64,000 nt of DNA from assembly GCA_963707915.1 (NCBI GenBank), contig OY970178.1, positions 3,094,103 to 3,158,102 of the forward strand, written 5' to 3'. Positions 9,478-42,837 of this stretch are shown here, one piece after another. The translations under genes were made by a program, and so were the position numbers. A model generated the notes under the pieces. The model did no database searches. It saw nothing but the letters and a program-made list of their open reading frames with translations, and was not told the origin of the DNA. Source of the DNA: Candidatus Eiseniibacteriota bacterium (GTDB lineage Bacteria > Eisenbacteria > RBG-16-71-46). Positions within the stretch are counted from its first letter, which is position 1; the number at the start of each line of letters is the position of its first letter.

Positions 9478-9521
9478 CTCCGTGTCCTCCTCCGTGGTTG
9501 GCAACTGTCGCCTGGTCCGGT

Positions 9522-11081: not shown

Positions 11082-11093
11082 TCGTGCCCCGTC

Positions 11094-12041: not shown

Positions 12042-12485
12042 GTGGGGCGTTGGCAACGCGACTCCTTCCGAGAGTGGGTCCGGAATGCGACTTCCGTATC
12101 GCTGCGTCGTGAGCGGCACCAGGTGGCGGCCCGACCGGTTGATGGGGCGCGTGATGGCGGCTCGCGGCCGAAAGGCATTCGCGTCGGGCTCGGAGGTGGA
12201 GACGTCCGGAGCTTGTCAGGCCCGCTTCCGCAATGCCGTGTTCGTGATCGTGGATCGAGCGCCATCCCTGCGCGCATGACGTGCACTATAGCGCAGAACG
12301 AAAGCGAAGTCTCCGTAGTAATACCGACCCACCTATCATCGCCCCGCCCCGGGGAATCTTGAGCGATATCGGCGTCCGCATGACGCTTCCGTCGATTCGG
12401 CCGCGCGGTCAAGTTGCGTCCGGCTAAACACGGTGGCGTCGATGGATTCCGCAATGGTGGCCTCATCCGCCCGAGGGGCGGGCCG

Positions 12486-13532
12486 TCAGCTGCCCGTGGT
12501 GTCGGGCGGCGTCGTGTCCTGCGGCAGGGCGAGCACCTGGAGCCGGCCGAGCGCGCGCTCGGTGATGGCGACGAGCCCCCGGCCGTCGGTCACGAACGAG
12601 GTCGGGTAGGAGACCTCGCCGGGAGCCGTGCCCTCGCCCGTGGCCAGGGTGAGGAAGCCGCCGGCGTGGTCGAAGACCTGCACGCTCTGGCGGATCTCGT
12701 CGCACACCCAGATGCGGCCGTCCCGCGTGCCCAGCACCCCCGACGGCAGCGAGATGTTGCCCGGCCCCATCTCGTGCGTCGCGAAGCCGCGCAGGTAGGC
12801 GCCCTCGCCGGTGAACACCTGCACGCCGAGGTCCGTGCGCGCGCAGGTCACCGCCAGCGTGCTGTCCGGCATGACGGCCAGCGCGGTCACGCTGTGCAGG
12901 CGGCCCGGGCCGCTCCCGGGCTCGCCCCAGGAGCCGGCGCGGGAGTAGTCGGCGGCGAAGCGGTGGATCCGGGAGCCCTCTCCGGAACTGGCCACGTAGA
13001 TGGTGCCGTCGGGGCCGACGGCGAGGGCGATCGGCCGCTCGCCGGGAAGGTCCAGGCGCCGCAGCGGGCGGCCGCGACGGTCGAGGACGTCCACGTACGA
13101 CGCCGAGTTGTCCGCCACGAGCAGGCGCCCCGCGCGGTCGAAGGCCAGCGCGCAGGGCTCGCCGTCCACCAGCCCGCCGTCGGGACCGGCGACCCGGTGG
13201 ACGAACCAGGTGAGGGCGCGCCCGGTCTTCGAGAAGACCTCGATCCGGTGGGCGCCGGTGTTGGCGACGTAGATCGCCCCGTCGAGCGGATCGAACGCCG
13301 CCCCGCGCGGCCGGCTCAGGTTGGTGCCGTCCGCGTAACCCCAGATGACCAGCCTAGGGGTGAGCAGGCGCGGGGCCGCGGCGACCGCGGCCAGCGCGCA
13401 CGCGAGCAGCGCGGCCGCCAGCCCCGGGGCGAAGACGTGGCGCCGGACCCGTGCGCTGCGGAGCACCGCGCCCGCTCGGAGGCCGGGCTTCGCCCGGGCC
13501 CCCGGCTTCTCCTCGAGCGTCGCACGCGTCAC
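12486..13532 (-). CDS. NHL-repeat beta-propeller protein, secreted
   Basis: NHL-like repeats (IYVANTGAHRIEVF, IYVASSGEGSRIHRF, RIWVCDEIRQSVQVF). The ORF has no ATG upstream, so a GTG start at 13532 was chosen before the hydrophobic segment RRHVFAPGLAAALLACALAAVAAA. Start is uncertain. Confidence 0.55.
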   Translation of the reverse strand: MTRATLEEKPGARAKPGLRAGAVLRSARVRRHVFAPGLAAALLACALAAVAAAPRLLTPRLVIWGYADGTNLSRPRGAAFDPLDGAIYVANTGAHRIEVFSKTGRALTWFVHRVAGPDGGLVDGEPCALAFDRAGRLLVADNSASYVDVLDRRGRPLRRLDLPGERPIALAVGPDGTIYVASSGEGSRIHRFAADYSRAGSWGEPGSGPGRLHSVTALAVMPDSTLAVTCARTDLGVQVFTGEGAYLRGFATHEMGPGNISLPSGVLGTRDGRIWVCDEIRQSVQVFDHAGGFLTLATGEGTAPGEVSYPTSFVTDGRGLVAITERALGRLQVLALPQDTTPPDTTGS

Positions 13533-13896
13533 GGGGCACGCACCTTTCTGCGGTCGGGCTGGCCCGGGCTCGCCGCCGGGGCGAGGCGGCACGGGGATCG
13601 AGTCCCTTCGGGTCCGCCCATCGGCGCAGACACTACGGTCAGCCTCGCCCGCTGGCAACGCACGCCCCGCGGCGCCACCCGCGGCCGGGCGTTGACGCGC
13701 CTCGACCCCGGCCCCTATGTTGCCGCCGGCCGCGCGGCGGCCCGCAGGGTGCCGGCCCGGGCGGCCGCACGGAGACCACGCCATGACCAGGAACGGGGCG
13801 GTCCATGACCCGCAGGGCGGCAATCCGAGGGGAGCTCGGGACGTGGCCATCGCCGAGCGCGAGCCGGTCCGGCGCGGCGGCGGGCGGGATCACCTG

Positions 13897-15492
13897 ATGC
13901 CTCGCCGGGCGTCCGTGCTGGTCGCGCTCCTGGCGCTCGCGGTCTACCTGCCCCTCTGCCCGCCGGTGTCGGGGGTCGGGGACGGGAGCGAGTTCACCCT
14001 GGTGCTCGCCACGAACGGGGTCGCCCACCCCACCGGCTACCCCCTGTACGTCCTGCTGGGGCACCTGTTCTGCGTGCTCCTGCACGCGCTGGGCGTGTCC
14101 TGGCCGCTGGCTGCCAACGCCTGGAGCGCGGTCGGGGCCGCGGTGGCCATCGGCTTCCTGCACGCGCTCGGAACGGAGCTCGTCCGGCTCGCCACGCCGG
14201 GCCTGGCGGGGACCGCCCGCTTCGTCGCGGCGCTCGTGCCGGCGGCCCTGATCGCGTTCCAGCCCATCCTGCTGGGAGTGGCGACGTCGGCCGAGGTGAA
14301 CAGCTGGAGCCTGGCCTGGGTCTGTGCGGCGGCCTGGGCCTTCCTGCGGCTGTCGGCCGCGGTGGCGCGCGACGGGGGCCCCGAGCCCTCGCCCGGCCGT
14401 GCGGCCGCCCTCTGGGGGCTGGTCTGCGGCCTCGGGTTGGCGCACCACCTCACCTCCGTGGTGGTGGCGCTGCCGCTCTCGGCGGGCCTGGTCGTGCTGC
14501 TCGCCCGGCGGCGGCGTCTTGGGCCCGGTCTGCTGTTCCGGGCCGCCGCGGCGGCGCTGGTCCCGCTCGCGAGCTACGGGATCATCGCCTGGCGCGCCTG
14601 GCACCCGGCCCGGGTGCAGTGGCCGGCGCTGGTCCCGGGAGCGGCCTCGGTGCTCGAGCACATCAGCGGAGCGCAGTACCGCCACTTCCTCGGCTACTTC
14701 GACCCGGCCGCCGACCACCGCGCGTTGCTGGCGCGCGCGGGCTATCCATTCCTCGTCCCGGGGTTGGCGCTGCTCCTGCTCGGTGTCCTGCGCGAGCGGC
14801 GGCCGGAGCGGCGGGTGGCGTGGGCGGCGCTCCTGGCCGCCGCGCTGTCGTCGGCCCTCTTCGCCTTCCGCTACGGGGTTCCCGACCCGGCGCCGTACTT
14901 CCTGCCGGCGATGGCGCTGGGCGCGGCCGCGGCCGCGCCCACGGTGGCGAGCCTGGCGGGCGGGGCCGGGCGCGAGCGGGCGCTTCGCCTGGGCGTGATG
15001 GGTCTGGCCGCGCTCGCCCTGGTCGTCCCCTGGATCCGCGGCGGGCTGGCGGAGCGCCGCGGACTGATCGAGAACGAGGCCATGCTCCGCTCGATGTGGT
15101 CCGCCGTGCCGTCGGACACGGCCATCGTCCTGTGGCCCGACGACCGCTTCATCCACCTGGTCGAGTACCAGATCCTGCGCGGCGAGAAGCCCGCGCTGTG
15201 GATCGCCACGCCGGACATGCTGCTGGAGGCCGCCACGCGCGCCGAGCTGCGGGGGCGCTTCGGGACCGACCCGCTCGAGGGGGTGCGCGTTCCCACGGTT
15301 CGCCCCGGCTTGCCGGACGAGGCGGCGACCATCCAGCGGTCGCTCGCCGCCATCGTCAGGAACCTGAACGCCCGCACGCGCGTCCCGGTGATCTGGTTCG
15401 ACCCGGGCGTGCCCGAGGTGCGGCAGTTGCGCAAGCCCTGGGAGCCGGTGGAAGGCTCCGGCGCGCGTCCCGCCACGCTCCTGTCGCCGTAG
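13897..15492 (+). CDS. DUF2723 / TMEM260-like polytopic membrane protein (GT-C-like glycosyltransferase fold)
   Basis: Multi-pass membrane protein with a DGSEF motif near the N-terminus and a soluble C-terminal domain. Alternative start at 13783 (MTRNG). Confidence 0.55.
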   Translation: MPRRASVLVALLALAVYLPLCPPVSGVGDGSEFTLVLATNGVAHPTGYPLYVLLGHLFCVLLHALGVSWPLAANAWSAVGAAVAIGFLHALGTELVRLATPGLAGTARFVAALVPAALIAFQPILLGVATSAEVNSWSLAWVCAAAWAFLRLSAAVARDGGPEPSPGRAAALWGLVCGLGLAHHLTSVVVALPLSAGLVVLLARRRRLGPGLLFRAAAAALVPLASYGIIAWRAWHPARVQWPALVPGAASVLEHISGAQYRHFLGYFDPAADHRALLARAGYPFLVPGLALLLLGVLRERRPERRVAWAALLAAALSSALFAFRYGVPDPAPYFLPAMALGAAAAAPTVASLAGGAGRERALRLGVMGLAALALVVPWIRGGLAERRGLIENEAMLRSMWSAVPSDTAIVLWPDDRFIHLVEYQILRGEKPALWIATPDMLLEAATRAELRGRFGTDPLEGVRVPTVRPGLPDEAATIQRSLAAIVRNLNARTRVPVIWFDPGVPEVRQLRKPWEPVEGSGARPATLLSP

Positions 15493-15555: not shown

Positions 15556-18500
15556 TCAGTCGCGCTTCGGCCCCATGGAGGGGTCGTGGCACTGGATGCA
15601 CAGCTCCCGGGTCGGCTCGTGCGTCAGCAGGGAAGGCTGGTCGCTCGAGTGGGGCAGGTGGCAGCCGACGCAGTCGAGCGGCTCGTTGGTGCGCGGGTCC
15701 ACGCCTCCCGAGACCTTGTGGAAGTGCTTGGACGTGTCCGAGTGGCACTGCCGGCACAGCGTGTCCACGTCCTCGGTGAGCAGCTTCTTGTGCTTCCCGC
15801 TGTGGGGATCGTGGCACGTCGCGCAGCCCTGCCCGAGCGCGGCGTGCACGTTCTTCCGGCGGAACGGGCGGGGATCGTGGCACTGGAAGCAGAGCTTCTC
15901 GCCCGCGCGCTTCAGCACGCCGGTCGCCATGCCCGCGTGCGCTCCGTGGCAGGAAAGGCAGGCCTCGCGCGACTGCAGCGGCGCGTGGACGACGGGCGCG
16001 GAGAGCCACGCTTTCTGCCCCTCGTGGCAGCGGAAGCACAGGTCGGGCACCGGCTGAGTCGTCGCCCCGGTCTTGCGCTCGCCATGACACTCGACGCACC
16101 TGCGCTGCGCGAAGGGCATGTGCGAGACGGGCTTGAGCATGCCGGGCCGGCCCGTCGCTCCGACGTGCGGATCGTGGCAGTCCACGCAGTTGGCCTTCGC
16201 GAGGGCGAAGCCCTGGTGCTTCGCCAGGAGCCCCTGCTTCTCGATCGAGTGGCAGGCGGTGCAGAGCGCGGCCCCCTGGCGCTTCGTCATGCCGGGCTCG
16301 TCGGTGCCGTGGCTCGCGTGGCAGGTCGAGCAGAGCCCCATGGCGACCGGCGCGTGGGGCTTGCCCTGCGCGATGCGGGTCTGCAGGTCCGCGTGGCAGG
16401 TGAAGCACAGCGCGCCGGTGCGCTGCTTCAGCAGCGCCGGGTTGGCGCTCTCGTGCGGCTCGTGGCAGGTCGCGCACTGGCCCGCGGCCGCGGGCGGGTG
16501 CCCGTGCTTGAGCCGGGCGTCGGCGACGGCCCCGGCATGGCACCGGACGCACAGCCGGATGGGCTGGGTGACCAGCAGCGCCGCGCGGTCGGAGGCGTGC
16601 GGCGTGTGGCAGGCGACGCAATCGCCCTTCGCGACCGGCGGATGCACGTGGCCGGCGGCCGCGCCCTGCGGTGTGGCCTTCTTCTTCGGGATCTGGTGGC
16701 ACGAGGCGCACAGCGTGGCCGCCGGGCGCGCCAGGTTCAGGGCCCCGGGCGCGCCGGTCTTCCCGTGGCACTTGGTGCACTCCTTCGACCCGAAGAACGG
16801 GTGTTCGCGGGCCGCCAGCAGGCCGGCCGACTTGGACGCGTGCGGGGTGTGGCACGAGAGGCAGTCGACCGCGGTCAGCGTGGCGCCGCCGTGTTTCCGG
16901 GTGAGGTCCGCGTCCTCCAGGTCGTGGCAGTCGCCGCACAGCGCGGGCACCTTCTTCGTCAGGGCGGGCGCCGCCACGCCGCCGTGGGGATCGTGGCAGG
17001 AGAGGCACTCGCCGCTCTCCACCGGGGGATGCACGGTGTCCCCTTCCTTGCCGATGCCGCCGTGGCACCGGGTGCACAGGGCGTTGGGCTCGTCGCGCAG
17101 CAGGGCCGCCCGCGACCCGCCGTGGGGCTCGTGGCAGGCCGCGCACTGCCCGGCCGCGGCCGGGGTGTGGGGTGCGGGGCCCTTGATCTTCGCGGCGATG
17201 TCGGCGTGGCACTTGGTGCAGAGGGTGGCCCCGCCGGTCGCGAGCAGGCGGTTGGTGAGCCCGCCGTGGGCGCCGTGGCACTCGAGGCACTGCCCGGCGG
17301 CTGCCGGCGCGTGCGGATGGGACGCCTTGGCCGCCATCACCTCCTGGCCGTGGCAGGGCGCGCAGATCTTCGCCGGCTCGCCGCGCAGCAGCTTGCCCTG
17401 GCCCGACTGGTGCGGGTCGTGGCAGGCGGTGCACTGGCCGGAGCGGAACGGCGGGTGCACCTCGAGGCCGACGAGCTTCTGCGCCAGGTCGGCGTGGCAG
17501 GTCCGGCAGAGCGCGCGCATGTCCTTGCGCAGGAGCCGCTCCTCGGCCGCCGAGTGGGGGGCGTGACAGCGCAGGCAGTCCTTCTTCGCGAACGGCGGGT
17601 GCGTCCCGGCGCTGTCGGCGCGGGCCCCGAGGTCCTTGTGGCAGTCGAGGCACATCGCGCCGTCGGCGGTCTTCAGGAGGTGCTCGCGGTCGGATCCGTG
17701 CGGCTGGTGGCAGCCGGCGCAGTCGCCGGCCGCGAACGCCTTGTGGACCACCGGCTGCTTCAGCGCTTCGGCGAGCTGGTCGTGGCACTGGCCGCAGAGT
17801 TCCAGCGGCTTCGACTTGAGCAGGCCCCGGGCGACCCCGCGGTGCGGGTCGTGGCAGGTGAGGCACTCGCCGCCCGCCGCCGGCGGGTGGGGCGTGGGTT
17901 TCTGGGACGCGGTCCGCACGTCGTCGTGGCAGGTGAAGCACAGCTCCGGCACCTCGGTGACGAGCTTCGCGCCCGCCTTGCCGTCCTCCATCGTGTGGCA
18001 GGCGTCGCAGCTGCCCTCGGCCGCGGGCGCGTGCGCGGTCTCGCGCCGGAGCGCGGTCTCGGTCGAGGCGTGCGGGTCGTGGCAGTCGAGGCAGGCCAGC
18101 CCGGCGACCGTGAGCTTCGCGTGCGCGGTGGCCGTGTCGGCGGGCTTGTGGCACGTCGCGCAGAGCTGGTCGGCCGGGCCGCGGAGCAGCCCGGCGTCCT
18201 TCGAACCGTGGGCGTCGTGGCACGCGTAGCAGTCGCCCCGGGCAAAGACCGCGTGCACGTGCGGCTTCTTCGCCTGGGCCGCGGCCTCCTCGTGACAGGG
18301 GAAGCAGGTGGCTTGCGGGCCCCCGGCGCGCAGCAGCCGCGGCTGGTCGGAGGCGTGCGGATCGTGGCAGGAGAGGCACTTGCCCTGTTCGTAGGCGGCG
18401 TGCGCGTGCTCGGGCTTCGCGGCCGTCTTCAGGGCGTCATGGCAGCCGAAGCACAGCTCCGGCGCCGGCTTCACCAGGATCAGCTTCTGCAGGAAGCCGT

Positions 18501-18717
18501 GGCTCTTGTGGCAGGCCGCGCAGTCCACCTTCGCGACCGGCGCGTGAACGAACTTCCTCGACCCGTAGTCCTGCTTCGCGTCCTTGTGGCAGTCGTAGCA
18601 GGGACGGCCCTTCGGCACCGGCTTCGCGGCGTCGACGTGTCCGGGCAGCAGCAGCGGGACGGCGCCGAGCAGTGCTGCCGCGAACAGCGCGCGCAGGAGA
18701 CGGGCGGGGCGGCTCAT
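15556..18717 (-). CDS. giant multiheme c-type cytochrome, 1053 aa, 42 CxxCH motifs in repeated c7-like units
   Basis: Signal peptide MSRPARLLRALFAAALLGAVPLLLPGHVDA. 42 CxxCH motifs counted by eye, spaced about 18-22 aa apart with intervening His ligands (…DPHAS…). Confidence 0.9.
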   Translation of the reverse strand: MSRPARLLRALFAAALLGAVPLLLPGHVDAAKPVPKGRPCYDCHKDAKQDYGSRKFVHAPVAKVDCAACHKSHGFLQKLILVKPAPELCFGCHDALKTAAKPEHAHAAYEQGKCLSCHDPHASDQPRLLRAGGPQATCFPCHEEAAAQAKKPHVHAVFARGDCYACHDAHGSKDAGLLRGPADQLCATCHKPADTATAHAKLTVAGLACLDCHDPHASTETALRRETAHAPAAEGSCDACHTMEDGKAGAKLVTEVPELCFTCHDDVRTASQKPTPHPPAAGGECLTCHDPHRGVARGLLKSKPLELCGQCHDQLAEALKQPVVHKAFAAGDCAGCHQPHGSDREHLLKTADGAMCLDCHKDLGARADSAGTHPPFAKKDCLRCHAPHSAAEERLLRKDMRALCRTCHADLAQKLVGLEVHPPFRSGQCTACHDPHQSGQGKLLRGEPAKICAPCHGQEVMAAKASHPHAPAAAGQCLECHGAHGGLTNRLLATGGATLCTKCHADIAAKIKGPAPHTPAAAGQCAACHEPHGGSRAALLRDEPNALCTRCHGGIGKEGDTVHPPVESGECLSCHDPHGGVAAPALTKKVPALCGDCHDLEDADLTRKHGGATLTAVDCLSCHTPHASKSAGLLAAREHPFFGSKECTKCHGKTGAPGALNLARPAATLCASCHQIPKKKATPQGAAAGHVHPPVAKGDCVACHTPHASDRAALLVTQPIRLCVRCHAGAVADARLKHGHPPAAAGQCATCHEPHESANPALLKQRTGALCFTCHADLQTRIAQGKPHAPVAMGLCSTCHASHGTDEPGMTKRQGAALCTACHSIEKQGLLAKHQGFALAKANCVDCHDPHVGATGRPGMLKPVSHMPFAQRRCVECHGERKTGATTQPVPDLCFRCHEGQKAWLSAPVVHAPLQSREACLSCHGAHAGMATGVLKRAGEKLCFQCHDPRPFRRKNVHAALGQGCATCHDPHSGKHKKLLTEDVDTLCRQCHSDTSKHFHKVSGGVDPRTNEPLDCVGCHLPHSSDQPSLLTHEPTRELCIQCHDPSMGPKRD

Positions 18718-19238
18718 CGCGCGGACACGGTGTCGTGGCCGGCCGGCCGCGTCGGGGGCGCGGTGGGCGGGCTCGCCGGGGCGACGGCCGACGTGTCGAC
18801 CATGATCGGCGCCCGCCCGGTGAACTCGACCTTGACCACCTGGAAGGCGAACATGGACTTGCGCGCGAAGTGGGGCGGCATCTTGAGCAGCGCCCAGGTC
18901 GTGTCCTGCGGCGCCTTCTTCTGGAAGACGATGATGCGGAAGGCGGGGTTGTCGGGCTGGTCGGACTTCGACATGATCTTGCGGGTGGTGAGGTCCATGG
19001 TGAAGTCGGGCACGTACTCGACCACGCGCGCCGAGAAGTCGGTGTCACCGAGGATGAAGTCCTGCTTCAGCTTCACCCGCTGCAGGTCGCGGAAGTCGTG
19101 GAAGACGCGATGCCGCACCAGCAGCGTCACGGCGTCCAGCCGCGCCCCGCCCGCGGCCGCCGGCGGCTTCACCTGCGCCTGGGACGGGAGGACCGCGACG
19201 AGTCCGATCAGGAGCCCGAGCCACCACGTGCGTCTCAT
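18714..19238 (-). CDS. small secreted/periplasmic hypothetical protein
   Basis: Start MRRTWWLGLLIGLVAVLPSQAQ with AAGGAAGGA upstream. Stop overlaps the giant cytochrome start by 4 nt. Confidence 0.55.
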   Translation of the reverse strand: MRRTWWLGLLIGLVAVLPSQAQVKPPAAAGGARLDAVTLLVRHRVFHDFRDLQRVKLKQDFILGDTDFSARVVEYVPDFTMDLTTRKIMSKSDQPDNPAFRIIVFQKKAPQDTTWALLKMPPHFARKSMFAFQVVKVEFTGRAPIMVDTSAVAPASPPTAPPTRPAGHDTVSAR

Positions 19239-19867
19239 CTGGATCCTTCCTTGCGGGGGCCCGGCGCGCGGCGCGCGCCCGCCACCCTGAAGTCGCCGAG
19301 CATGTCCTGGGCGAGCAGCGAGACCAGCCGTTCCGTGCTCATGACCCGTCCCCAGCCGAACAGCGTCTCGTGGTCCTCGCCGGAGCGGAAGTGCACACCG
19401 GCCCACAGGACCCGGCCGCTCGCGGCCTCGACCAGCCGCAGCGTGCCGCCCACGGCGGGCACGTCCAGGTCGCCGCTGCGCAACCGTCCGCTCTCGAGCA
19501 CGCTGCCCATCAGCAGGTAGGGGGCGCGCAGGGCCTCGCCCAGCTCGCGGACCTGCGCCGGCGTGAGCGAGCCGCCCGAACGGATGCCCAGCGAGTCCAT
19601 CGCCTCGTCCACCTGCCCGGGCTCGGCCATCTCGAGGGCGCCGCTGGCGACCAGCTGGGCGAAGAACACCTTGCTGAAGAGCGCGCCCTGCTCCTCGCGG
19701 CCCGCGAGGTTCTCGAACGGCACGAGCGCGGCGCGCGGGTGGTCCGCGGGCACGGTGCCTCCGGCGGAGCGACGCAGGGCCGGTGCGCTCCCGGCGCACA
19801 GCACCGCCAGGCCGGCGAGGACGGCGAGCCGCAGCCCGATCGCGATGCGCCCGTGACGTCGAGCCAT
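19235..19867 (-). CDS. lipoprotein with an LpoB/CsgG-like (TolB-N-like) fold
   Basis: Signal/lipobox region ...LAVLCAGSAP, then the motif AALVPFENLAGREEQG. Paralog of the next gene. 4-nt overlap with the downstream gene. Confidence 0.6.
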   Translation of the reverse strand: MARRHGRIAIGLRLAVLAGLAVLCAGSAPALRRSAGGTVPADHPRAALVPFENLAGREEQGALFSKVFFAQLVASGALEMAEPGQVDEAMDSLGIRSGGSLTPAQVRELGEALRAPYLLMGSVLESGRLRSGDLDVPAVGGTLRLVEAASGRVLWAGVHFRSGEDHETLFGWGRVMSTERLVSLLAQDMLGDFRVAGARRAPGPRKEGSR

Positions 19868-19869
19868 GG

Positions 19870-20460
19870 TCAGAACGCCCTCCCGCGCAGCCGGGCCACG
19901 AGCTCGTCGCAGGCGTCCTGCGTCAGCCGTCCCAGCGAGCGCGAACTCTGGCCGAGGACCGGGATGCGGCTCTTGCCGCGCTTCGCGATCGAGGACCGCC
20001 AGACCACGTTCCCGGTGTTGGCGTCCAGCAGCTCCGCGTCGAACGACAGGACCGGGATGTCGCCGTTCTCCGTGCGCTGCATGGTGTACTCGCTGACCGC
20101 GCCGCGCAGCACGCCGGTGGCTCCCAGCCGGAGGGCCACCTCCTTGAGCTTCTGCAGGTCATACGTCCCGTCCGTCTCCGGCATGACGTTGTCCTTCAGC
20201 AGGGCGGTGCGGAACTCCTCGGGCTGCACGATCTGGTAGCGGTCCGTCATGATCAGCGAGGTGATGAAGGCGCGCGTGACGCGCGGTCCGGCCAGCCCCT
20301 CGCTGCTCAGGTTGGTGAACGGCAGCACGGCGATCCTGGTGTAGAAGGCCATGTCCGCGTCGGGATTCAGGTAGACCCGGGAGACCGGGGCGCAGGAGAG
20401 CAGGAGCAGGCCCAGGGCGGCGGCCGCCATGCGTGCCAGAGGATGGTGCTTCCCGGCCAT
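19870..20460 (-). CDS. lipoprotein with an LpoB/CsgG-like fold (paralog of 19235..19867)
   Basis: Lipobox LLLSCAP, then RIAVLPFTNLSSEGLAG, a motif typical of the LpoB/CsgG/GNA1162 lipoprotein fold. Confidence 0.65.
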   Translation of the reverse strand: MAGKHHPLARMAAAALGLLLLSCAPVSRVYLNPDADMAFYTRIAVLPFTNLSSEGLAGPRVTRAFITSLIMTDRYQIVQPEEFRTALLKDNVMPETDGTYDLQKLKEVALRLGATGVLRGAVSEYTMQRTENGDIPVLSFDAELLDANTGNVVWRSSIAKRGKSRIPVLGQSSRSLGRLTQDACDELVARLRGRAF

Positions 20461-20461
20461 G

Positions 20462-22111
20462 CTACCTCCAGAGACTCTGGGACAAGGTCGCGCTCACCTG
20501 CCGGGCGCGGGTGGGAAGACCCGGGTCCGCCTGAGTGTAGCGAATCGTGGCGTGCAGGTCGCGGTTCAATGCCACGGCGAGCCAGGCGCCGTAGGCCTCA
20601 CGGCCGGCCGTGAGCGACGTGCCGGGGTCGCGCAGTTGCTGGTTCGCGCGGGTGTAGGTGCCGCTCGCCTGGACGGTGCGCGAGGGGGTCCACTGCACGC
20701 TGGCCTGCAGCGTCGAGCGGTCGGGCGCGTTGCGCACGAAGCCCCCGGCGCGGCCCCAGCTGCCGCTCGCCTGCAGCTTCTCCGAGGCCCGCCAGTCGAG
20801 GCTCGTCGTGTAGGTGGTCGAGGCCGGGCCGTCGCCCCGCAGCGTCGCGCCGGTGCGGTAGCGCCGCAGGTTCGCATTGAGGGTGACGGTGCGCAGCGGC
20901 ACCGCGCGCAGGCCGGCGGCGGTCTGCAGCGTCACCAGGGTCGCGGCCGGGCCGGTTTCGAGGCCCGCGCTGGGGCGGTCGGCCCTGGAGAGCGAGGCCT
21001 CGCCGAAGGCGTCGAACCCCTTCGAGAGCCGCATCCGCGTGTTCGAGCGGATGCTCTGGACCGGGCGGGCGCGGTCGCCGGGGAGCCAGTTCCACGACTG
21101 GTTCGCGCTCGCTCCCAACCTCCACCCGGGCCGGGCGTCGCCCTCGGCCGAGGCCGACGTGCTCAGGAAGCTCTCGGTCTCCTCGCTGCCCGCGACGTTG
21201 ACGCTGCGCACTCCGCCGCCGCCGGACAACTGCACCGCCTTCCAGGGCCGGTGGATGACGCTGAGTGAGCCGTCGTGATCGACCTCGGTCGTGGTGGCGA
21301 ACTGCGTGGTGCCCACGCTCCGGAAGCTGTAGGCGAGACTGGCAGAGGTCCGCTTGGAGATCGCCAGCCCCCCGTTCGCGGACGCGCTGTGCACGCGCGA
21401 GGTGGCGTCATGGGCCCCGTCGACCTGCCTGCGCGACTGGTTGTAGTCGTACTGGAGGACGGCATTCGCACGCCGGTTCTCGAGGCGCACGGTCGAGCCG
21501 GCGTTGACGTTCTCCTCGCTCCCGGTCCGCCGCCGCGCGCTGCGGTCCTCGTTGGCCAGGTCGCCGTAGCCCGCGTGGAGGTTCAGCCGCCCCAGGTCGT
21601 AGTTGGCCATCAGGCTGCGCCTCACGGCCGCTGTGCCCGGGAACGGGCCGCTCGCATCCTGGTTGCGACGGTTCCACGAGGCCGACAGCTGGGGAAGCCC
21701 GGCCCGCTGGAAGTAGCCCGTCAGGTTGGTCTCCTGCTGGCGGGTCGTGAGGTTGCGCGAATCGACGACCGTGATCGGCCGGTAGGAGCCGAACAGCCCG
21801 AACAGCGGATGGGCCAGGCGCAGGGAGCCCTGCGGGAGGATCTGGCGGTCGGGTCGTCCGATGGTGCGCTGGTCGGTGAACTGGAACCGGGACGAGAGCT
21901 CGTAGGCCTTGCGGAAGCGGCGGGAGTAGTCGAGTTGCACGGAGGTGAGCCACCATTCCACGTCGTTGGCCGGGTCCAGCAGGCTGAGCTTCGAGTATTG
22001 CACCTCGGCGACTCCCCGGATCTTCTGCTGGGCGTCAGCGGGCCCGGCGAGCAGAACGGCCGCCATCGATGCCGCCACCAGCCCCGCCCCCAGCGCTCTT
22101 CGCCGCATCAT
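20462..22111 (-). CDS. outer-membrane beta-barrel protein
   Basis: Start MMRRRALGAGLVAASMAAVLLAGPADA. 549 aa rich in alternating strands and in Ser/Thr/Asn/Gln/Tyr. Start overlaps the upstream cytochrome stop. Confidence 0.6.
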   Translation of the reverse strand: MMRRRALGAGLVAASMAAVLLAGPADAQQKIRGVAEVQYSKLSLLDPANDVEWWLTSVQLDYSRRFRKAYELSSRFQFTDQRTIGRPDRQILPQGSLRLAHPLFGLFGSYRPITVVDSRNLTTRQQETNLTGYFQRAGLPQLSASWNRRNQDASGPFPGTAAVRRSLMANYDLGRLNLHAGYGDLANEDRSARRRTGSEENVNAGSTVRLENRRANAVLQYDYNQSRRQVDGAHDATSRVHSASANGGLAISKRTSASLAYSFRSVGTTQFATTTEVDHDGSLSVIHRPWKAVQLSGGGGVRSVNVAGSEETESFLSTSASAEGDARPGWRLGASANQSWNWLPGDRARPVQSIRSNTRMRLSKGFDAFGEASLSRADRPSAGLETGPAATLVTLQTAAGLRAVPLRTVTLNANLRRYRTGATLRGDGPASTTYTTSLDWRASEKLQASGSWGRAGGFVRNAPDRSTLQASVQWTPSRTVQASGTYTRANQQLRDPGTSLTAGREAYGAWLAVALNRDLHATIRYTQADPGLPTRARQVSATLSQSLWR

Positions 22112-23511
22112 CGAGCATAGTTGATCGTGTACGACTCGGGATCGTGACACGTCGGCGAGCAGGTGCCGCCGCTGGCCGTCTCGGTGTAGGAGCCGATGCC
22201 CGGGTTGCGCCCCGTGGCGATGAGATGGCGCTGGTCGGGCGAGCCGTGCGTGACGTGGCAGGCGTAACAGGGGACGTGCTCCTCGCCGACGTGCTCGGCG
22301 TGGCCCTTGTCCACCCCGGGCTTGTTGAACCGCGAGAGGGCCCTCGTCGCCTCGGGCGCGCCCGGGTCCGCGTAGACTTCGGGGGTGTGGCAGGCGAAGC
22401 AGATCTCGCCGGTGCTCATCGTCCGCGGCTGGGGCGAGGCGGTGTAGGGCTGCGTCAGGATGTAGCGGTACGAGGAGCCGTGCGGCCCGCGCGTGGACCC
22501 GACGAAATCGCTGCCGTGGCAATCGCCGCAGCGCGTGAGGCTGGCGGCGCTCCAGCCGGGCGCGAACGCGCCGGCCGGGATCCCCGGGTTGCGGCCCGCG
22601 GCCTCGACCGGGTGGAACGACTCGTTCGCCGGGTTCAGGACCAGGGCCAGGTCGGTCTGCCCCGAGGGCTGGCTGGTCCAGGACGAATGGCACTTGAAGC
22701 AGAGCTGGTATTCCGCCACCGGCGCGCTCAGCGTATCGGAGCCGGCGGCGAACGTGAACGTGGGGGGCGTGCCCGCCGGGCCGTTCTGCACCAGCACCCG
22801 ACTCACGCCCAGGTTGGTGCGCGAGAGCCCGGGGGCGGCCGGCGTGGCGGGCCGGTCGGCGCCGGCCACGTGCGGGTTGTGGCAGTCGACGCACTCGGAG
22901 TGGCGCGCGTTCGCGGGCGAGACCCCGAAGTCGGCGGGATCGGATTCGGCCGGTCCCTTGTGGCGCCCGGAGTAGAGCCGCACCGGGTGCCGGTAGACCT
23001 TGGCGAGATCGGCGCCGATGTTGGTGGAAGCGGGCGCGCCGTCATGGCAGGTGAGGCAGAGAGTCTCCTCGCGCCCGATGGCGAGCGCCGGGATCAGCCC
23101 GCCGGCGTCCGACCAGCCGTGCGGGTCGTGGCAGTTGAGGCACTTGCCCTCCGCGCCCGGCTCGGTGCGTGGCGGGGGGGTGGGCCCCGGCCAGGCGGTC
23201 CCGGTGGCCGTGCCGTGAGAGGCGCCGGAGTACACCCAGGGCCCCGCGTAGCTGCCGGCCGTCCAGGGCTTGTCGTGGCAGCGGTCGCAAAGCGAGTTGT
23301 CGTCCGGGCCGAGCAGCGCGTGCCCGTAGACGACATCCCCCTGGCCGTGCACGGTGTGGCACTGGTCGCAGTCGCCCGCGTGCGCGCCCTGCGCCAGGAG
23401 CTTCTCGACGCCGGCGGGGGTGCGATAGGGATGCAGGGGCTGCGCTCCAGTCGCCAGCAGGCACACCAACGCCAGCCCCGCGAGGCTCGAGACGAGATCC
23501 CTCGGTCGCAT
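22108..23511 (-). CDS. multiheme c-type cytochrome (about 9 CxxCH plus 1 CX3CH)
   Basis: Start MRPRDLVSSLAGLALVCLLATGAQP, possibly a lipoprotein. Motifs CDQCH, CDRCH, CLNCH, CLTCH, CVDCH, CFKCH, CGDCH, CFACH, CYACH and CSPTCH. Confidence 0.8.
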   Translation of the reverse strand: MRPRDLVSSLAGLALVCLLATGAQPLHPYRTPAGVEKLLAQGAHAGDCDQCHTVHGQGDVVYGHALLGPDDNSLCDRCHDKPWTAGSYAGPWVYSGASHGTATGTAWPGPTPPPRTEPGAEGKCLNCHDPHGWSDAGGLIPALAIGREETLCLTCHDGAPASTNIGADLAKVYRHPVRLYSGRHKGPAESDPADFGVSPANARHSECVDCHNPHVAGADRPATPAAPGLSRTNLGVSRVLVQNGPAGTPPTFTFAAGSDTLSAPVAEYQLCFKCHSSWTSQPSGQTDLALVLNPANESFHPVEAAGRNPGIPAGAFAPGWSAASLTRCGDCHGSDFVGSTRGPHGSSYRYILTQPYTASPQPRTMSTGEICFACHTPEVYADPGAPEATRALSRFNKPGVDKGHAEHVGEEHVPCYACHVTHGSPDQRHLIATGRNPGIGSYTETASGGTCSPTCHDPESYTINYAR

Positions 23512-23591
23512 GCTGCCCAGATTAGCCCAGCGCGTCGAAAACCTCACGCTGCCCACCCGTCCCGGCCTGGAAGTGGATGCCCGATGGACAT

Positions 23592-23622
23592 CCGGCCGAC
23601 TCCGGGATGCGGAGCCGGCCGG
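23592..23622 (-). terminator. GC-rich hairpin just downstream of the OmcS-like gene (possible partial terminator or attenuator)
   Basis: 13-bp stem with one mismatch (CCGGCCGACTCCG / CGGAGCCGGCCGG) and a 5-nt loop. No U-tract follows. Confidence 0.35.
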
Positions 23623-23644
23623 ACCTTGCCCGATGTTGCGAGGC

Positions 23645-24718
23645 TCAGGGGATGATCGCGACCGGGTTGCCGGCCGGGAAGCTGCCCTGGGTGTGGCACT
23701 GACGGCACAGGTCGCGGTACTCGCCGCCGTCACCCTGCTCGGTGATGTCGGTCGGGGTTGCGGGCGTGTTGGGACCGGTCGTGGTGTTGTCCACGAACCA
23801 GATCAGCCCGAAGCCGTTCTGGTTGCCGTGCGACTTGTGGCAGGTGAAGCACGACGGGGTCGCGGTGGCGGTCGAACCGTCCCACTGGCCCAGCCCGTCC
23901 ATCAGCTTGACCTTGTGCGTGTGCAGGTTCAGCTGGGTGCGGTTGCTGGTGCTGAGGTCCACGCCGGCCGTCGGGTGACGGACCACGCCGTCGACGGTCT
24001 CGATGTTGGCGTCCGCCGGTGAGCCGTGGAAGGTCGTGTGGCAGGCCTGGCACCATGCGCCGTAGGCGCTCGTGGTCTGGCTCGGCTCCTGGTAGTTGAC
24101 GTTGTTCCAGCCGTAGCCGCGCGCGGCCGCCTCGTAGACGTCCTTCGTGTTGGTGGGCGTCCCGCCGATCTCGTAGGAGACGAACCGGTTGTAGAAGGCG
24201 TTGGTGCTGCGCGTGCTGCTCTTCAGGTTGCGGTAGTTCGCCGCGCCGTGCGCGGAGTGGCAGTCCGCACAACCCAGGCCGCTCGCGCTCACGGGCGAAG
24301 TCGTGCCGCTGAAGCCCGGCGGCGTGGCGGTCGACCACAGCGTGTGGCCGTCACCGACGGAGTAGCCGGCGTCGTTCGTGTAGCCGTGGCCCGACTCGAC
24401 GTTCAGCGCACCGGCGAGGCGGCCGTTCAGCGGGGCCGCGCTCGTGGTGCCGAGCACGTCCGGAACGTCCGTGCGACCGTCGTGGCACGAGAGGCACACC
24501 GCGTTGACCGACGACTGGCGCAGCAGCTTCGCGAACGGAGCGCCGGCGCCCGGAGGATTCAGCTCGCCGGTCTCGGGGTAGGTGTGCGACTGCTGGCCGT
24601 GCATCACGTGGCAATCGCTGCAGACCAGCAACTGGCCGACGTGATAGTCGCCCGACAACGCGACGGTCGTGAGACCGGCGAGGGCCAGGACGACGAGGGA
24701 GAGCAACAGGCGCTTCAT
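23645..24718 (-). CDS. omcS-like: OmcS-family hexaheme c-type cytochrome (nanowire-type extracellular cytochrome)
   Basis: Signal peptide MKRLLLSLVVLALAGLTTVALS and six CxxCH motifs. Motif-by-motif resemblance to Geobacter OmcS as recalled from memory: CSDCHVMHG vs CEGCHTMHN; CLSCHDG vs CLNCHQH; WCQACHTTFHGSP vs WCANCHTDIHNS; CFTCHKSHG vs CLSCHRAHA; C-terminal LCRQCH vs LCNKCH. Long Ser/Thr/Gly-rich inter-heme spacers. Confidence 0.75.
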   Translation of the reverse strand: MKRLLLSLVVLALAGLTTVALSGDYHVGQLLVCSDCHVMHGQQSHTYPETGELNPPGAGAPFAKLLRQSSVNAVCLSCHDGRTDVPDVLGTTSAAPLNGRLAGALNVESGHGYTNDAGYSVGDGHTLWSTATPPGFSGTTSPVSASGLGCADCHSAHGAANYRNLKSSTRSTNAFYNRFVSYEIGGTPTNTKDVYEAAARGYGWNNVNYQEPSQTTSAYGAWCQACHTTFHGSPADANIETVDGVVRHPTAGVDLSTSNRTQLNLHTHKVKLMDGLGQWDGSTATATPSCFTCHKSHGNQNGFGLIWFVDNTTTGPNTPATPTDITEQGDGGEYRDLCRQCHTQGSFPAGNPVAIIP

Positions 24719-25276
24719 GAGTTTGCTCCTCGTGGTGGTGGGGGATGCTTCGGGTTCGAATCTTCAGGAGTCGGGTCTGAAGGTAACGAGCGAGTTGCGC
24801 TGACCCCCCTTTCGAACCCGGGAGTGGGAACGAGTGCTGGTCCAGCGGCGTTTCGCAGGACCGTGCTCGATTCGAACGGACCTTCCTGAGCCTTCGGATC
24901 GGGCGGGAGGCGGGAGGCGTTCTGCCTCCCTCCGTCACCCTGCGTCTCGACCACGAGTGACTCAGGACGTTGAGACGGGAACGATGATACGGTAATGTGA
25001 ACTGCGCGTCTAGGTGAAAGTACTGATGCGAGGTCCGCAGTCCACCTGTGGTCTGGTGTTCTAAAGTACCATGTGCCATCTAGATACGTAGACTAATGGC
25101 TATCAACGACATGAGTCCGCTTCTGGGAACGGATGGTCCTTACCGGCGCTTGCCGAATCAACTGGAGTCTGAAATCCTCCGTCGACTAGGCCATTTCCCG
25201 CTCTTGTGTTCCATAAAGAAACGATTGGTTGGATGGTCTTCCGCCCGTCGAGTGACCCATAATTCCGAGGGAAGTC

Positions 25277-27487
25277 GTGAATCTTGGTGACCTGCTGCTG
25301 AAGCTCGCATTCCTGCTCGCGGTCCCGGCCGCCTTCCTCTTCTTCCAGGACGTCCGGGGCCGCCGCGGGCCCGCAGCGGCTGAATGGATGTTCGGGCTCC
25401 ACTCGGCCGCCATCCTCGGCGCGGTCGTCACGCTCTGGGCGCTCTTCCTCGGCCACCGCTTCGAGTACGCCTACATCGCCGAGTACAGTTCCCGCGCCCT
25501 CTCGCCCGCGCTCACCTTTGCGGCCTCCTGGGCCGGGCAGGAGGGCAGCATCCTGCTCTGGGCACTGCTCATGGCGCTGGTGGGCGTCGCCCTGATGCGG
25601 CAGCCGGGGCCGCTCTCCCGGCCGGCGATGTTCTTCGTCGCGCTCGCCCAGCTCGGCCTGCTGGTGCTGCTCCTGGTGCGCAGTCCGTTCCGCGTGAGCC
25701 ACGTCACCCCGGCGGACGGCCAGGGCCTGAACCCGCTGCTCGAGGATCCCTGGATGGTCGTCCATCCGCCGGTGCTCTTCGTGGGGTACGCGGCGATGGT
25801 GGCCCCCTTCGCCCTGGCGGGCGCCGCGCTGGTGCTCGGTCTGTGGCGCGAATGGAACCGCGCCGTTTGGCCCTGGGTGCTGTTCGCGGTGCTCTCGCTC
25901 GGAACCGGCATCGCCCTCGGCGGCATCTGGGCCTACAAGGTGCTGGGCTGGGGCGGCTACTGGGGCTGGGACCCGGTCGAGAACGCCTCGCTCGTGCCCT
26001 GGCTCGTCGCGGTCGCGCTCCTGCACGGCCTGTTCATCCAGAAGACCACCGGTGGGCTGGTGCGCAGCAACCTGCTCATGGCGTTCCTGGGATGGCTCAC
26101 CGTGCTCGGCGGGACCTACCTGACCCGCAGCGGCGTGCTGCAGGACTTCTCGGTCCACTCCTTCGCCGACTCGGGCCTCAACGTGCCGCTGATCGTCAAC
26201 CTGGCCGGCGCCCTGCTGATCGCGGCCGTGCTGCTGGCCTGGCGCTGGCGCGCGATCGAGTCGAGGCCCACCCGCTGGACCAGCGTCTCGCGCGAGGCCG
26301 CGCTGTGGGTCGGGCTCGTCACGGTGCTGGTCTTCGCGGCCATGGTGACCTTCGGCACGATCGCTCCGCTGCTCACCTCGCTGGCCGGCCGGCCCGCCAG
26401 CGTGCGCCCGTCGTTCTACCAGTCGATGAGCGTGCCGCTCGGCGTCCTGCTGGTGCTGGTCATGGCGGTCGCGCCGGCGCTGCGCTGGTCGCGGCAGGTG
26501 GGGTTCGGCTGGCTCACGGCGCTCGCCCCGGGGTTCCTGTGCGCGCTGCTGGCGTTCGGGGGCGCGCTCCTCACGGGCGTGCGGGACGGGGCGCACCTGG
26601 CGCTGCTCGCCACGACCGGGTTCGCCCTCGGGATCAACGCGTGGATGACCGTGAAGCTGTTCCGCCGCGGCTGGAGCTACGGCGCGGGCTACCTCGGGCA
26701 CGCGGGGCTCGCCATCATGATCCTGGGGATGGTGATGTCCACGGCGCTGGGACGCACCGAGCGCCTGACGCTGCGGACGGGCGAATCGGGGCAGGCCCTC
26801 GGCTACACGATCACCTACCGCGGAGACCATTTCGATCCGCGCGGTGGCCACCAGCTCGACGTGCTGGTGAGCCGCAAGGGCTGGAGCTTCGAGGCCCGCC
26901 CGCAGCTGCTGAAGATGCCGCAGGGCGAGGGCAGCATGCACAAGCCGGCCATCAGCGGCCGGCGCGAGCTCTACCTGTCGCCAGTGGACGTGCAGCGGCT
27001 GGAGAGCGACGCGGACCGGATCGTGTGGCTGCCGCAGGGCCAGGCGGTGCCGGCGCTGGGACTGACCTGGACCTTCGTGGGGTTCCGGATGGAGTCGCAC
27101 GAGGCCATGCAGGTCCTGGCCGACATCGATGTCCGCCGGAGCGGGCCGGCGGTGCGGATCTCCCCCGGGATGCGCGCCGACGCGCAGGGGACCCGGGCGC
27201 TGCCGGTCGAGGTGGCCGGCCTGGGGCAGGTCACGGTCGAACGGATCGACGCGGATCGCAAGCGGGTGGGTGTGCTGCTCCCGGGTGCCGGGGCGGCGAG
27301 CCAGGCGGTGCTGGAGTTCAGCACCAAGCCGCTGGTCAACCTGGTCTGGGTGGGCGCGCTCATCACCCTGCTCGGGGCCGCGCTGGCCGGCCTGCGCCGT
27401 GCCATCGAGGTCGTGCCTGGCGCGCGACGCCGGCGGGCCGCCGCCGCTCCGGCCGCTCCAGCCGTCCCGACCGGCGGGGCCCGGTAA
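25277..27487 (+). CDS. ccmF: cytochrome c-type biogenesis protein CcmF/NrfE (heme lyase)
   Basis: GTG start with GAGGGAAG upstream. Polytopic membrane protein with the Trp-rich WGGYWGWDPVEN motif typical of CcmF. Confidence 0.85.
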   Translation: MNLGDLLLKLAFLLAVPAAFLFFQDVRGRRGPAAAEWMFGLHSAAILGAVVTLWALFLGHRFEYAYIAEYSSRALSPALTFAASWAGQEGSILLWALLMALVGVALMRQPGPLSRPAMFFVALAQLGLLVLLLVRSPFRVSHVTPADGQGLNPLLEDPWMVVHPPVLFVGYAAMVAPFALAGAALVLGLWREWNRAVWPWVLFAVLSLGTGIALGGIWAYKVLGWGGYWGWDPVENASLVPWLVAVALLHGLFIQKTTGGLVRSNLLMAFLGWLTVLGGTYLTRSGVLQDFSVHSFADSGLNVPLIVNLAGALLIAAVLLAWRWRAIESRPTRWTSVSREAALWVGLVTVLVFAAMVTFGTIAPLLTSLAGRPASVRPSFYQSMSVPLGVLLVLVMAVAPALRWSRQVGFGWLTALAPGFLCALLAFGGALLTGVRDGAHLALLATTGFALGINAWMTVKLFRRGWSYGAGYLGHAGLAIMILGMVMSTALGRTERLTLRTGESGQALGYTITYRGDHFDPRGGHQLDVLVSRKGWSFEARPQLLKMPQGEGSMHKPAISGRRELYLSPVDVQRLESDADRIVWLPQGQAVPALGLTWTFVGFRMESHEAMQVLADIDVRRSGPAVRISPGMRADAQGTRALPVEVAGLGQVTVERIDADRKRVGVLLPGAGAASQAVLEFSTKPLVNLVWVGALITLLGAALAGLRRAIEVVPGARRRRAAAAPAAPAVPTGGAR

Positions 27488-38448: not shown

Positions 38449-38698
38449 GGGGCGTCCCTGCCTCGATTCCGATGCCATCGGGTGCGGCCCTCCGGAGCCC
38501 TGACGAGGTGCGATCTCACGAGGTGCTGGGCCCGCCGATCCCGGTGCGGAGCGAGACAATGGTAGCACAGCCGGGGGGCGCCGGAGCCGTCGCGCGACGG
38601 ACGCGGCGGGCGAGTGGGGCGGCGAGGCGCGGGGCCGGGGCATTCGACCCAGCGGGGGCTCCGCGCCGGGCGGTCGGGCGCGGCCCGTCCGGGGGAGG

Positions 38699-38809
38699 CT
38701 AGCGGAAGAACGTGAAGCGCAGGATCAGCAGCAGGAAGAGCAGCAGCAGGTAGAACTGCAGGAAGTACAGGGCGAACCGCTTGCCCTTGGTCATCTTCAC
38801 CGGGGGCAT
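38699..38809 (-). CDS. 36-aa extremely hydrophobic micropeptide (MPPVKMTKGKRFALYFLQFYLLLLFLLLILRFTFFR)
   Basis: Starts 8 nt after the stop of the MgtE-N/CBS gene. Local AT-rich codons. A single predicted TM helix. Confidence 0.3.
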   Translation of the reverse strand: MPPVKMTKGKRFALYFLQFYLLLLFLLLILRFTFFR

Positions 38810-40106: not shown

Positions 40107-40108
40107 GG

Positions 40109-41438: not shown

Positions 41439-41669
41439 GTGCACCTCGAGGTGGGTCCGGCAGGGGGGCGGAGGCCTGGGCAGCCTGGCGCTGGACGATT
41501 CGGCGCAGAGTAGGCCGCGGCTCCGCGGTCGGCAAGCGGAAATGGGCCGGATGCGCGCCGGGACGCGACGCGCGACGCGAATTGGAAACGGCTTGACACT
41601 CCGCGACGGAGGCCGATACGGTGGAAGTCGTCGCTTCCTTCGTCGGCTCGCCATGGAGTCCTCCCCGCC

Positions 41670-42143: not shown

Positions 42144-42168
42144 CACCCGGCCGGCGCCACCGGCCGCG

Positions 42169-42834: not shown

Positions 42835-42837
42835 GCC

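Follow-up and report, generated by a model that had tools for sequence, protein, structure and literature searches.

The window analysed here is a stretch of 64,000 nucleotides (nt) from Candidatus Eisenbacteria (contig OY970178.1), with a G+C content of about 72%. On its minus strand lies a tightly packed operon, headed by the gene for a secreted cytochrome with six CxxCH haem motifs, which is here called the OmcS-like protein, after the filament-forming cytochrome OmcS of Geobacter. The following genes encode, in this order, a decahaem cytochrome, an outer-membrane beta-barrel, two lipoproteins, a protein of 174 amino acids (aa) and a cytochrome with 42 haems; the coordinates of these and of other features are collected in Table 1. 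As judged by comparison at the sequence level, the first gene product belongs to the hexahaem c-type cytochromes of the OmcS superfamily, as a compact member that has diverged strongly, and the operon is a reduced form of the omcS-companion (osc) cluster of Geobacter.

The OmcS-like protein and its relationship to OmcS

A preliminary description of this DNA, made from its letters alone, had proposed a secreted protein of 357 aa with six CxxCH motifs. Translation confirms it and assigns the gene to the minus strand: the plus-strand translation of 23645..24718 is not a cytochrome. The G+C content at third codon positions (GC3) of the frame is 0.93, a strong coding signature. A Sec-type signal peptide covers residues 1-22/23 (MKRLLLSLVVLALAGLTTVALSG, followed by DYH...), leaving a mature protein of about 335 residues, and a lipobox is absent. 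CxxCH motifs number exactly six; they start at residues 33, 75, 150, 223, 290 and 338. Their spacing (42/75/73/67/48) follows a pattern parallel to that of OmcS (38/93/99/89/72), in compressed form, and Ser, Thr and Gly account together for a fraction of 0.31, against 0.30 in OmcS. The four motif likenesses to OmcS listed in the preliminary description prove correct when compared with the deposited sequence 6EF8: CSDCHVMH/CEGCHTMH, WCQACHT/WCANCHT, CFTCHKSH/CLSCHRAH and LCRQCH/LCNKCH. Public records label the relatives of the protein as "cytochrome c3 family protein" or "hypothetical protein".

In order to evaluate the relationship to OmcS, single-sequence and profile searches were compared. 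A phmmer search with the OmcS-like protein against all PDB chains did not find OmcS, even at E ≤ 10, and Pfam and NCBIfam returned generic multihaem domains only. Pairwise identity to OmcS, calculated by BLASTP, is 22-24%. Two family alignments were used for the profile searches: A1, composed of 42 homologues of the gene product sharing 45-88% identity, and A2, composed of 28 sequences of the OmcS family. When the A1 profile was run by hmmsearch against the 177,635 distinct sequences of the PDB, OmcS (6EF8/6NEF) was the sole significant match (E 1.9e-8), the next best having an E value of 0.19. Profile positions 25-341 align with chain residues 1-405; the match begins at the first mature residue, extends as far as the last haem motif and keeps all six motifs in register. 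The phmmer result would have passed for a refutation of kinship with OmcS; it was reversed by the profile search.

Comparison of the two families by HHalign gave a probability of 99.7% (E 1.2e-26); the 257 aligned columns span haems 1-5. With individual Geobacter proteins, the probabilities were 99.3% for OmcS (E 2e-20), 98.8% for OmcT (1e-16) and 98.7% for OscC/GSU2501 (4e-16), whereas generic multihaem controls were far weaker (OscI, E 1e-9; OscJ, E 9e-6). In the opposite direction, a hidden Markov model (HMM) of the OmcS family was compared with the window's five multihaem cytochromes and matches the OmcS-like protein alone, though weakly (22.7 bits). The alignment to OmcS, suggested as a check in the preliminary description, is therefore significant, though at the level of profile and fold only. 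The predicted fold agrees with that of OmcS as well. Chance is effectively excluded as the source of the likeness; on sequence and model, the protein is a homologue of OmcS over its full length, with the six haem motifs in order, the conserved histidines and the predicted fold.

Besides those within the motifs, seven His residues are conserved in the OmcS-like family, at positions 26, 40, 125, 157, 231, 248 and 297. Six of them are shared by both families (H26/H2, H40/H16, H125/H110, H157/H147, H248/H257 and H297/H335) and are invariant, or nearly so, in both, while each family has one private conserved His besides (H231 in the OmcS-like family, H63 in OmcS). Six shared distal His residues correspond to the number required for bis-His ligation of six haems; since each family has a seventh, individual ligands are assigned provisionally.

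In the account of Wang et al. 2019, His16 of OmcS (CEGCH-TM-H) is reportedly the inter-subunit ligand, pairing with His332 on haem 5'. H40 of the OmcS-like protein, contained in CSDCHVMH, aligns with this residue; it is invariant in 42 of the 42 sequences of A1, and its counterpart in 28 of the 28 sequences of A2. The conservation of this His, also proposed for checking in the preliminary description, is thus borne out. All 12 axial haem ligands of OmcS are His, and one haem-5 ligand is supplied by the neighbouring subunit (PMC6584659). From the alignment, we infer that H40 may act as an inter-subunit ligand too.

In the subclade of the window's protein, haem 5 is followed by an insertion (TTGPN...), and the C terminus ends in a conserved tail (GSFP.GNP..I.P; 23645..23700, minus strand); most of the family in A1 has neither.

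The downstream operon, its signals and its distribution

The Geobacter omcS region (L001, L089 and L090) was used for comparison. Gene names are those of PMC13194489, and the roles are those given in PMC13194489 and PMC12977616, both citing Shen et al. 2025. The Geobacter order is GSU2505-like NHL, OmcS, OmcT, OscB, OscC, OscD, OscE, OscF, OscG, OscH, OscI, OscJ, OscK. OscB is spermine-synthase-like, OscD is a propeller with one CxxCH, OscE has 725 aa, OscF is LpoB/GNA1162-like, OscH is a Rotamase_2 protein, OscI and OscJ carry 26 and 16 haems, respectively, and OscK is an NHL protein. In these papers, the osc cluster is linked to the folding, secretion and morphology of OmcS nanowires (PMC13194489; PMC12977616), and the GSU2500-2493 block to nanowire maturation and secretion (PMC12977616).

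Table 1. Features of the window related to the OmcS-like operon and to the neighbouring porin-cytochrome set
Feature	Position	Strand	Basis or remark
OmcS-like hexahaem cytochrome, 357 aa, putative filament subunit	23645..24718	-	six CxxCH, family profile, HHalign
Sigma70-like promoter candidate, TAGACG-17-TATCAT	24984..25012	-	conserved in L003; implies a leader of ~255 nt
Stem-loop, perfect 14-bp G+C-rich stem	23591..23623	-	27 nt after subunit stop; no U-tract
Secreted multihaem cytochrome ("decahaem"), 467 aa, nine CxxCH and one CxxxCH	22108..23511	-	no specific Geobacter counterpart
OscE-like outer-membrane beta-barrel, 549 aa	20462..22111	-	HHalign to OscE family
OscF-like lipoprotein, 196 aa, LpoB/GNA1162-like fold family, lipobox LLLLSC	19870..20460	-	Pfam LpoB, BLASTP, HHalign
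Second LpoB-like lipoprotein, 210 aa, corresponding to C-terminal domain of OscG	19235..19867	-	BLASTP, HHalign
Secreted 174-aa protein in OscH position, not kin to OscH	18714..19238	-	45/80 loci
42-haem periplasmic-type cytochrome, 1053 aa, OscI-OscJ fusion	15556..18717	-	BLASTP
TMEM260-like GT-C protein O-mannosyltransferase	13717..15492	+	possible glycosylation partner
NHL-repeat beta-propeller, haem-free	12486..13448	-	HHalign
Periplasmic cytochrome, 341 aa, 10-11 haems	11094..12119	-	porin-cytochrome set
Barrel, 519 aa, no family match	9522..11081	-	porin-cytochrome set
Lipoprotein hexahaem, MtrC/MtrF-like and c552-like signals	8389..9477	-	porin-cytochrome set

The preliminary description had placed the OmcS-like gene first in an operon of porin, lipoprotein and giant-cytochrome genes; this order is confirmed, but the decahaem gene intervening before the barrel had gone unmentioned. 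The barrel did not match OscE significantly by BLASTP, whereas comparison of the two families by HHalign gave 98.9% (E 1.8e-17) over 514 columns, nearly the full length. Sequence searches in Pfam, NCBIfam and PDB returned no match for it, and thus no detectable kinship to MtrB-type porins. Its model, obtained from an alignment with OscE-family sequences, is all-beta and matches large outer-membrane barrels, with an unreliable middle third (235-391). The 196-aa lipoprotein shares 30% identity with OscF over 175 aa (BLASTP, E 1e-18; HHalign, 99.8%), and the 210-aa lipoprotein matches OscG, a protein of 392 aa, with E values of 4e-13 to 8e-12, and its residues 211-367 by HHalign (99.1%). In the 1053-aa cytochrome, residues 18-598 are 34% identical to OscI (E 2e-101), and residues 664-1045 are 35% identical to OscJ (E 2e-61; both BLASTP). 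Since its 42 CxxCH motifs also equal the sum of 26 and 16, it is read as a head-to-tail fusion of OscI and OscJ, which are encoded by separate genes in Geobacter. The only propeller of the window, the NHL protein, resembles by HHalign the GSU2505-like protein (99.4%), encoded directly upstream of Geobacter omcS, as well as OscK (99.1%), better than it does OscD (86.5%).

No match to OscB, OscD, OscH or OscK was obtained by tblastn across the 64-kb window, and a second OmcS-like hexahaem protein, equivalent to OscC, or an OmcT paralogue was not found in it. The 174-aa protein has no match in Pfam, NCBIfam or PDB. Its interpretation as a diverged OscH was considered and dropped: HHalign gave a probability of about 1% against every Geobacter osc protein, and the PDB contained no match. 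Residues R45, D66, F80, N98-P99, W116, P123-H124 and F133 are invariant in its family. A metagenome scan seeded with OscF produced six short loci.

The N-terminal part of the decahaem cytochrome, residues 47-181, is a four-haem module (CDQCHTVHG ... CDRCH ... CLNCHDPHG ... CLTCH ... YRHP). HHalign places it against the OmcS-like family with a probability of 98.3% (E 1.2e-14), haems 1-4 and the RHP motif being matched in their order. The profile of the decahaem family has no significant match in the PDB and does not find OmcS there at E ≤ 1; this weakens the decahaem as an OmcS-like protein, and serves at the same time as a negative control for the result obtained with the subunit.

The subunit gene is separated from the decahaem gene by a gap of 133 nt, in which a stem-loop is located. 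The stem is kept in the loci L003, L004 and L005, with base changes that preserve pairing. Stems of at least 10 bp, searched within 150 nt 3' of the subunit gene, were present in 57 of 78 related loci and in 1 of 78 length-matched coding controls; their sequences vary by lineage. In Geobacter, a terminator-like 15-bp stem with a T-run follows omcS-omcT (L090, 4018..4141). Taken as a whole, the 139-nt intergenic segment has an unremarkable folding energy (z -1.67), the only notable features being the discrete stem and its recurrence. The stem-loop is a candidate attenuator or mRNA-stability element, which may set the ratio of subunit to machinery. From the decahaem gene onward, ATGA start/stop overlaps join the decahaem and barrel genes (22108..22111) and the genes of the second lipoprotein and the 174-aa protein (19235..19238), while the remaining genes overlap or are spaced by 0-2 nt; overlaps and short gaps point to translational coupling of the machinery genes.

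Ahead of the subunit gene lies a non-coding region of about 540 nt, lower in G+C content, which contains the sigma70-like site (25012..24984); an SD-like (Shine-Dalgarno-like) GGAG precedes the ATG by 8-11 nt. In the interval 24719..25383 (minus strand), G+C is 0.665 and several blocks are conserved in L003, such as GGTACTTTAG.ACACC and CGGGTTCGAAAGGGGGG. Rfam gave no match on the whole window, the leader or the intergenic regions. A GEMM-type riboswitch, considered for the long leader, is unsupported, the Rfam search being empty.

Relatives were collected by scanning one genome per GTDB species, which produced 151; the gene content of the best 80 of these 151 loci was scored by tblastn with the window proteins. 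They come almost all from metagenome-assembled genomes (MAGs) of Candidatus Eisenbacteria, the closest, L003, being 87% identical; other hosts are Zixibacteria, Latescibacterota, Krumholzibacteriota, Ignavibacteria, Gemmatimonadota, Armatimonadetes and a few further groups. The operon is conserved across these candidate phyla: matches usually occur in the gene order of the window, and recur in most of the 80 loci. The NHL gene was found in 72 of them, the second lipoprotein in 65, the decahaem and the first lipoprotein in 64 each, the giant cytochrome in 63, the 174-aa protein in 45 and the barrel, the most divergent component, in 35. In most loci the NHL gene immediately precedes the subunit gene; in the window it is displaced beyond the giant cytochrome, behind the TMEM260-like gene on the opposite strand. 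An exhaustive profile search of 1.84 billion cluster representatives gave 211 matches at E ≤ 1e-30, 489 at ≤ 1e-10 and 1215 at ≤ 1e-3. The classical OmcS family is a separate, much larger set, with 4061 matches in a word-indexed search.

In two Eisenbacteria loci, L004 and L005, the machinery genes are 59-71% identical to those of the window, against 47-48% for the OmcS-like subunit; this gap suggests that the subunit evolves faster than the machinery, or is exchanged independently of it. A divergently transcribed gene (25384..27487, plus strand) encodes a protein of about 700 aa without Pfam or NCBIfam matches, which recurs ahead of the cluster in 13 related loci. The association of the TMEM260-like gene is weak (2 of 80 loci); OmcS is reported as glycosylated, and in Geobacter a PMT_2/TPR GT-C gene lies beside the omcS regulators.

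A second group of genes, at 8389..12119, has the classical order of a porin-cytochrome set. Homologues of its first two genes are located directly after the giant cytochrome in L050 and L077. This set is a likelier trans-outer-membrane electron conduit than the OmcS-like operon. Elsewhere in the window, a TonB-dependent receptor (5401..8286, plus strand), a GAF-GGDEF diguanylate cyclase (37132..38724, minus strand) and a very long reading frame with Nramp, PRC-barrel, MgtE_N and CBS domains (38817..43382, minus strand), possibly more than one gene, have no obvious link to the operon.

Proposed filament formation and its alternatives

The findings suggest that Candidatus Eisenbacteria, an uncultivated phylum of soils and sediments, probably makes conductive cytochrome filaments. 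Homology with OmcS, in an osc-type context, is very probable in our estimate; for actual filament formation by the OmcS-like protein, the probability is set at about 0.6. In the proposed mechanism, the protein would be exported by Sec and loaded with six haems in the periplasm. The OscE-like barrel would let it cross the outer membrane, with the two LpoB-like lipoproteins as gate or helpers. Subunits would then polymerise head to tail, His40 completing haem 5 of the neighbour, so as to produce a continuous haem wire. Electron transfer across the periplasm, as far as the base of the filament, would fall to the 42-haem OscI-J fusion and perhaps also to the decahaem, while the conserved stem-loop after the subunit gene would let the subunit exceed the machinery; this layout is the one expected for a structural subunit overproduced with respect to its machinery.

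In the preliminary description, a filament coupled to a dedicated conduit had been envisaged. The reading as a filament subunit is supported. For the barrel and the lipoproteins, a role in secretion and assembly is the better interpretation, given their homology to OscE, OscF and OscG, proteins that PMC13194489 and PMC12977616 assign to nanowire secretion and not to an electron conduit; "conduit" is therefore best replaced by "export and assembly machinery".

Several points weigh against filament formation. Identity to OmcS is only 22-24% and single-sequence searches fail; the AlphaFold2 model of the OmcS-like protein, which is haem-free, has a moderate confidence score (pLDDT 68) and is poor at the N-terminal arm carrying H40. 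With seven conserved non-motif His residues in each family, counting cannot prove that H40 is without a haem partner in its own chain. OscH, the prolyl isomerase chaperone, as well as OscB, OscC and OscD, are absent from the window. Every host of the family is an uncultivated MAG. Among OmcS, OmcT, GSU2501 and OmcJ of Geobacter, only OmcS is known to polymerise (PMC12977616), so homology alone does not prove wire formation. The secretion-channel role of OscEFG is itself called "proposed" in the literature.

In a different reading, tenable although somewhat unlikely, the protein is a true OmcS homologue but forms no filament, being a monomeric or loosely associated hexahaem cytochrome of the outer surface or periplasm. 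The decahaem, the OscE-like barrel and the lipoproteins would make up a porin-cytochrome conduit, and the protein would be its redox partner, either terminal or intermediate. The order cytochrome-cytochrome-barrel does recall porin-cytochrome clusters, the chaperone OscH is missing, and among the Geobacter paralogues OmcS alone is known as a wire. GSU2501 (OscC) adjoins the eight-gene block in every Geobacter genome having that block and has been proposed as its possible ancestral cargo; whether this cargo was a wire is left open by the authors (PMC12977616). Yet the equivalent of His16 is invariant in a family diverged to about 38-45% identity, the homology of the barrel and the lipoproteins is specifically to OscE, OscF and OscG, a separate classical porin-cytochrome set is already present at 8389..12119, and the conserved stem-loop fits an overproduced structural subunit.

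Far less probable is a heteromeric filament, or one with a specialised base, in which the decahaem would start or anchor the polymer by means of its OmcS-like module and the His of its CHTVH motif, linking it to the barrel and the 42-haem cytochrome. The alignment of the module with haems 1-4 of the OmcS-like family (98.3%), the constant position of the gene next after the subunit gene in the closer loci and its translational coupling to the barrel gene are consistent with such a role; yet generic multihaem likeness alone gives HHalign E values of about 1e-9, and the decahaem profile finds neither OmcS nor OmcE in the PDB. Finally, the resemblance to OmcS might be that shared by all haem-dense CxxCH proteins, the gene product being an unrelated multihaem cytochrome. 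The generic domains returned by Pfam and NCBIfam, the empty phmmer search against the PDB and the public names of the relatives are what such a protein would give. This explanation is effectively refuted by the match of the A1 profile to OmcS in the PDB, the HHalign comparison of A1 with A2 and the osc homologies of the neighbours: the alignment is collinear across six haems and six distal His residues, the negative controls (OscI and OscJ, the decahaem profile, the OmcS-family HMM on the window) behaved as expected, and four neighbour genes are independently homologous to osc genes.

To return to filament formation, to our knowledge cytochrome nanowires are known experimentally from few cultured organisms only. 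The finding of an OmcS-type subunit with the core machinery (OscE, OscF, OscG, OscI and OscJ) conserved in the never-cultured Candidatus Eisenbacteria and in neighbouring candidate phyla widens the range over which long-distance extracellular electron transfer is likely in soils and sediments, and flags an unannotated family of nanowire candidates. No new principle is involved, as Shen et al. 2025 (Cell Chem Biol 32:239) reportedly call the osc cluster "widespread and ancient" in their title, a description that already predicts such loci. The comparison marks OscB, OscC, OscD and OscH as dispensable, and OscE, OscF, OscG, OscI/J and the NHL propeller as core components, and the smaller subunit, of about 335 aa, could serve for engineering and experiments. 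A broader generalisation, which we consider doubtful, is that phyla of the FCB group (Eisenbacteria, Zixibacteria, Latescibacterota, Krumholzibacteriota, Ignavibacteria and others) carry a distinct minimal nanowire system, with a compact subunit of 56 residues per haem, no prolyl-isomerase chaperone, a decahaem with an OmcS-like four-haem head as primer or anchor and a single periplasmic 42-haem feeder. If this were true, the minimal system would represent a simplified, possibly ancestral blueprint for the assembly of cytochrome wires, and abundant uncultured lineages of soils and sediments would be long-range extracellular electron transferrers.

Comparison with known systems

With respect to MtrCAB of Shewanella and Pcc/Ext of Geobacter, the operon is alike in having an outer-membrane barrel beside multihaem cytochromes, and the barrel model is MtrB-like in size; neither its size nor its fold class conflicts with MtrB, which would hold for any large barrel. 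It differs in that the barrel is a homologue of OscE, with two LpoB-like lipoproteins as partners. GSU2501 (OscC) is, like the OmcS-like protein, a hexahaem relative of OmcS encoded directly before the secretion block, and scores 98.7% by HHalign against the A1 family; it is, however, no closer to the OmcS-like protein than OmcS is, and the alignment covers haems 1-4 only.

The OmcS-like protein and OmcS itself (GSU2504; 6EF8/6NEF) agree in the order of their six CxxCH motifs and in the short-long-long-long-medium spacing of these; they also share the six conserved distal His residues including the equivalent of His16, a Sec signal peptide and about 30% Ser/Thr/Gly. Both are encoded by the first gene of an operon with osc-type genes, in which a stem-loop or terminator stands between the subunit gene or genes and those of the machinery. 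The differences concern size, with about 335 mature residues (56 per haem) against 407 (68 per haem), and details of sequence: the OmcS-like protein lacks an equivalent of His63, has an extra invariant His231, carries two extra residues ahead of the N-terminal His and ends, in its subclade, with the tail GNPxxIxP. Its hosts are candidate phyla of the FCB group, whereas those of OmcS are Desulfuromonadia or Anaeromyxobacter; OmcS is known to polymerise, whereas for the OmcS-like protein polymerisation is a prediction.

The Geobacter osc cluster (GSU2505-GSU2493, L090) and the operon share OscE, OscF, the C-terminal domain of OscG, OscI, OscJ and flanking NHL propellers, in the same relative order E-F-G-(H position)-I-J. 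The window differs by the absence of an OmcT/OscC paralogue, OscB, the haem-bearing propeller OscD and OscH; by a barrel of 549 aa, against 725 in OscE, devoid of the F5/8-type-C (discoidin-like) insertion; by a single-domain OscG; by the fusion of OscI with OscJ; and by two extra conserved genes, for the 467-aa decahaem and the 174-aa protein. As far as its genes allow us to judge, the system would work like the OmcS/osc kind and, by most of the criteria tested, belongs to it.

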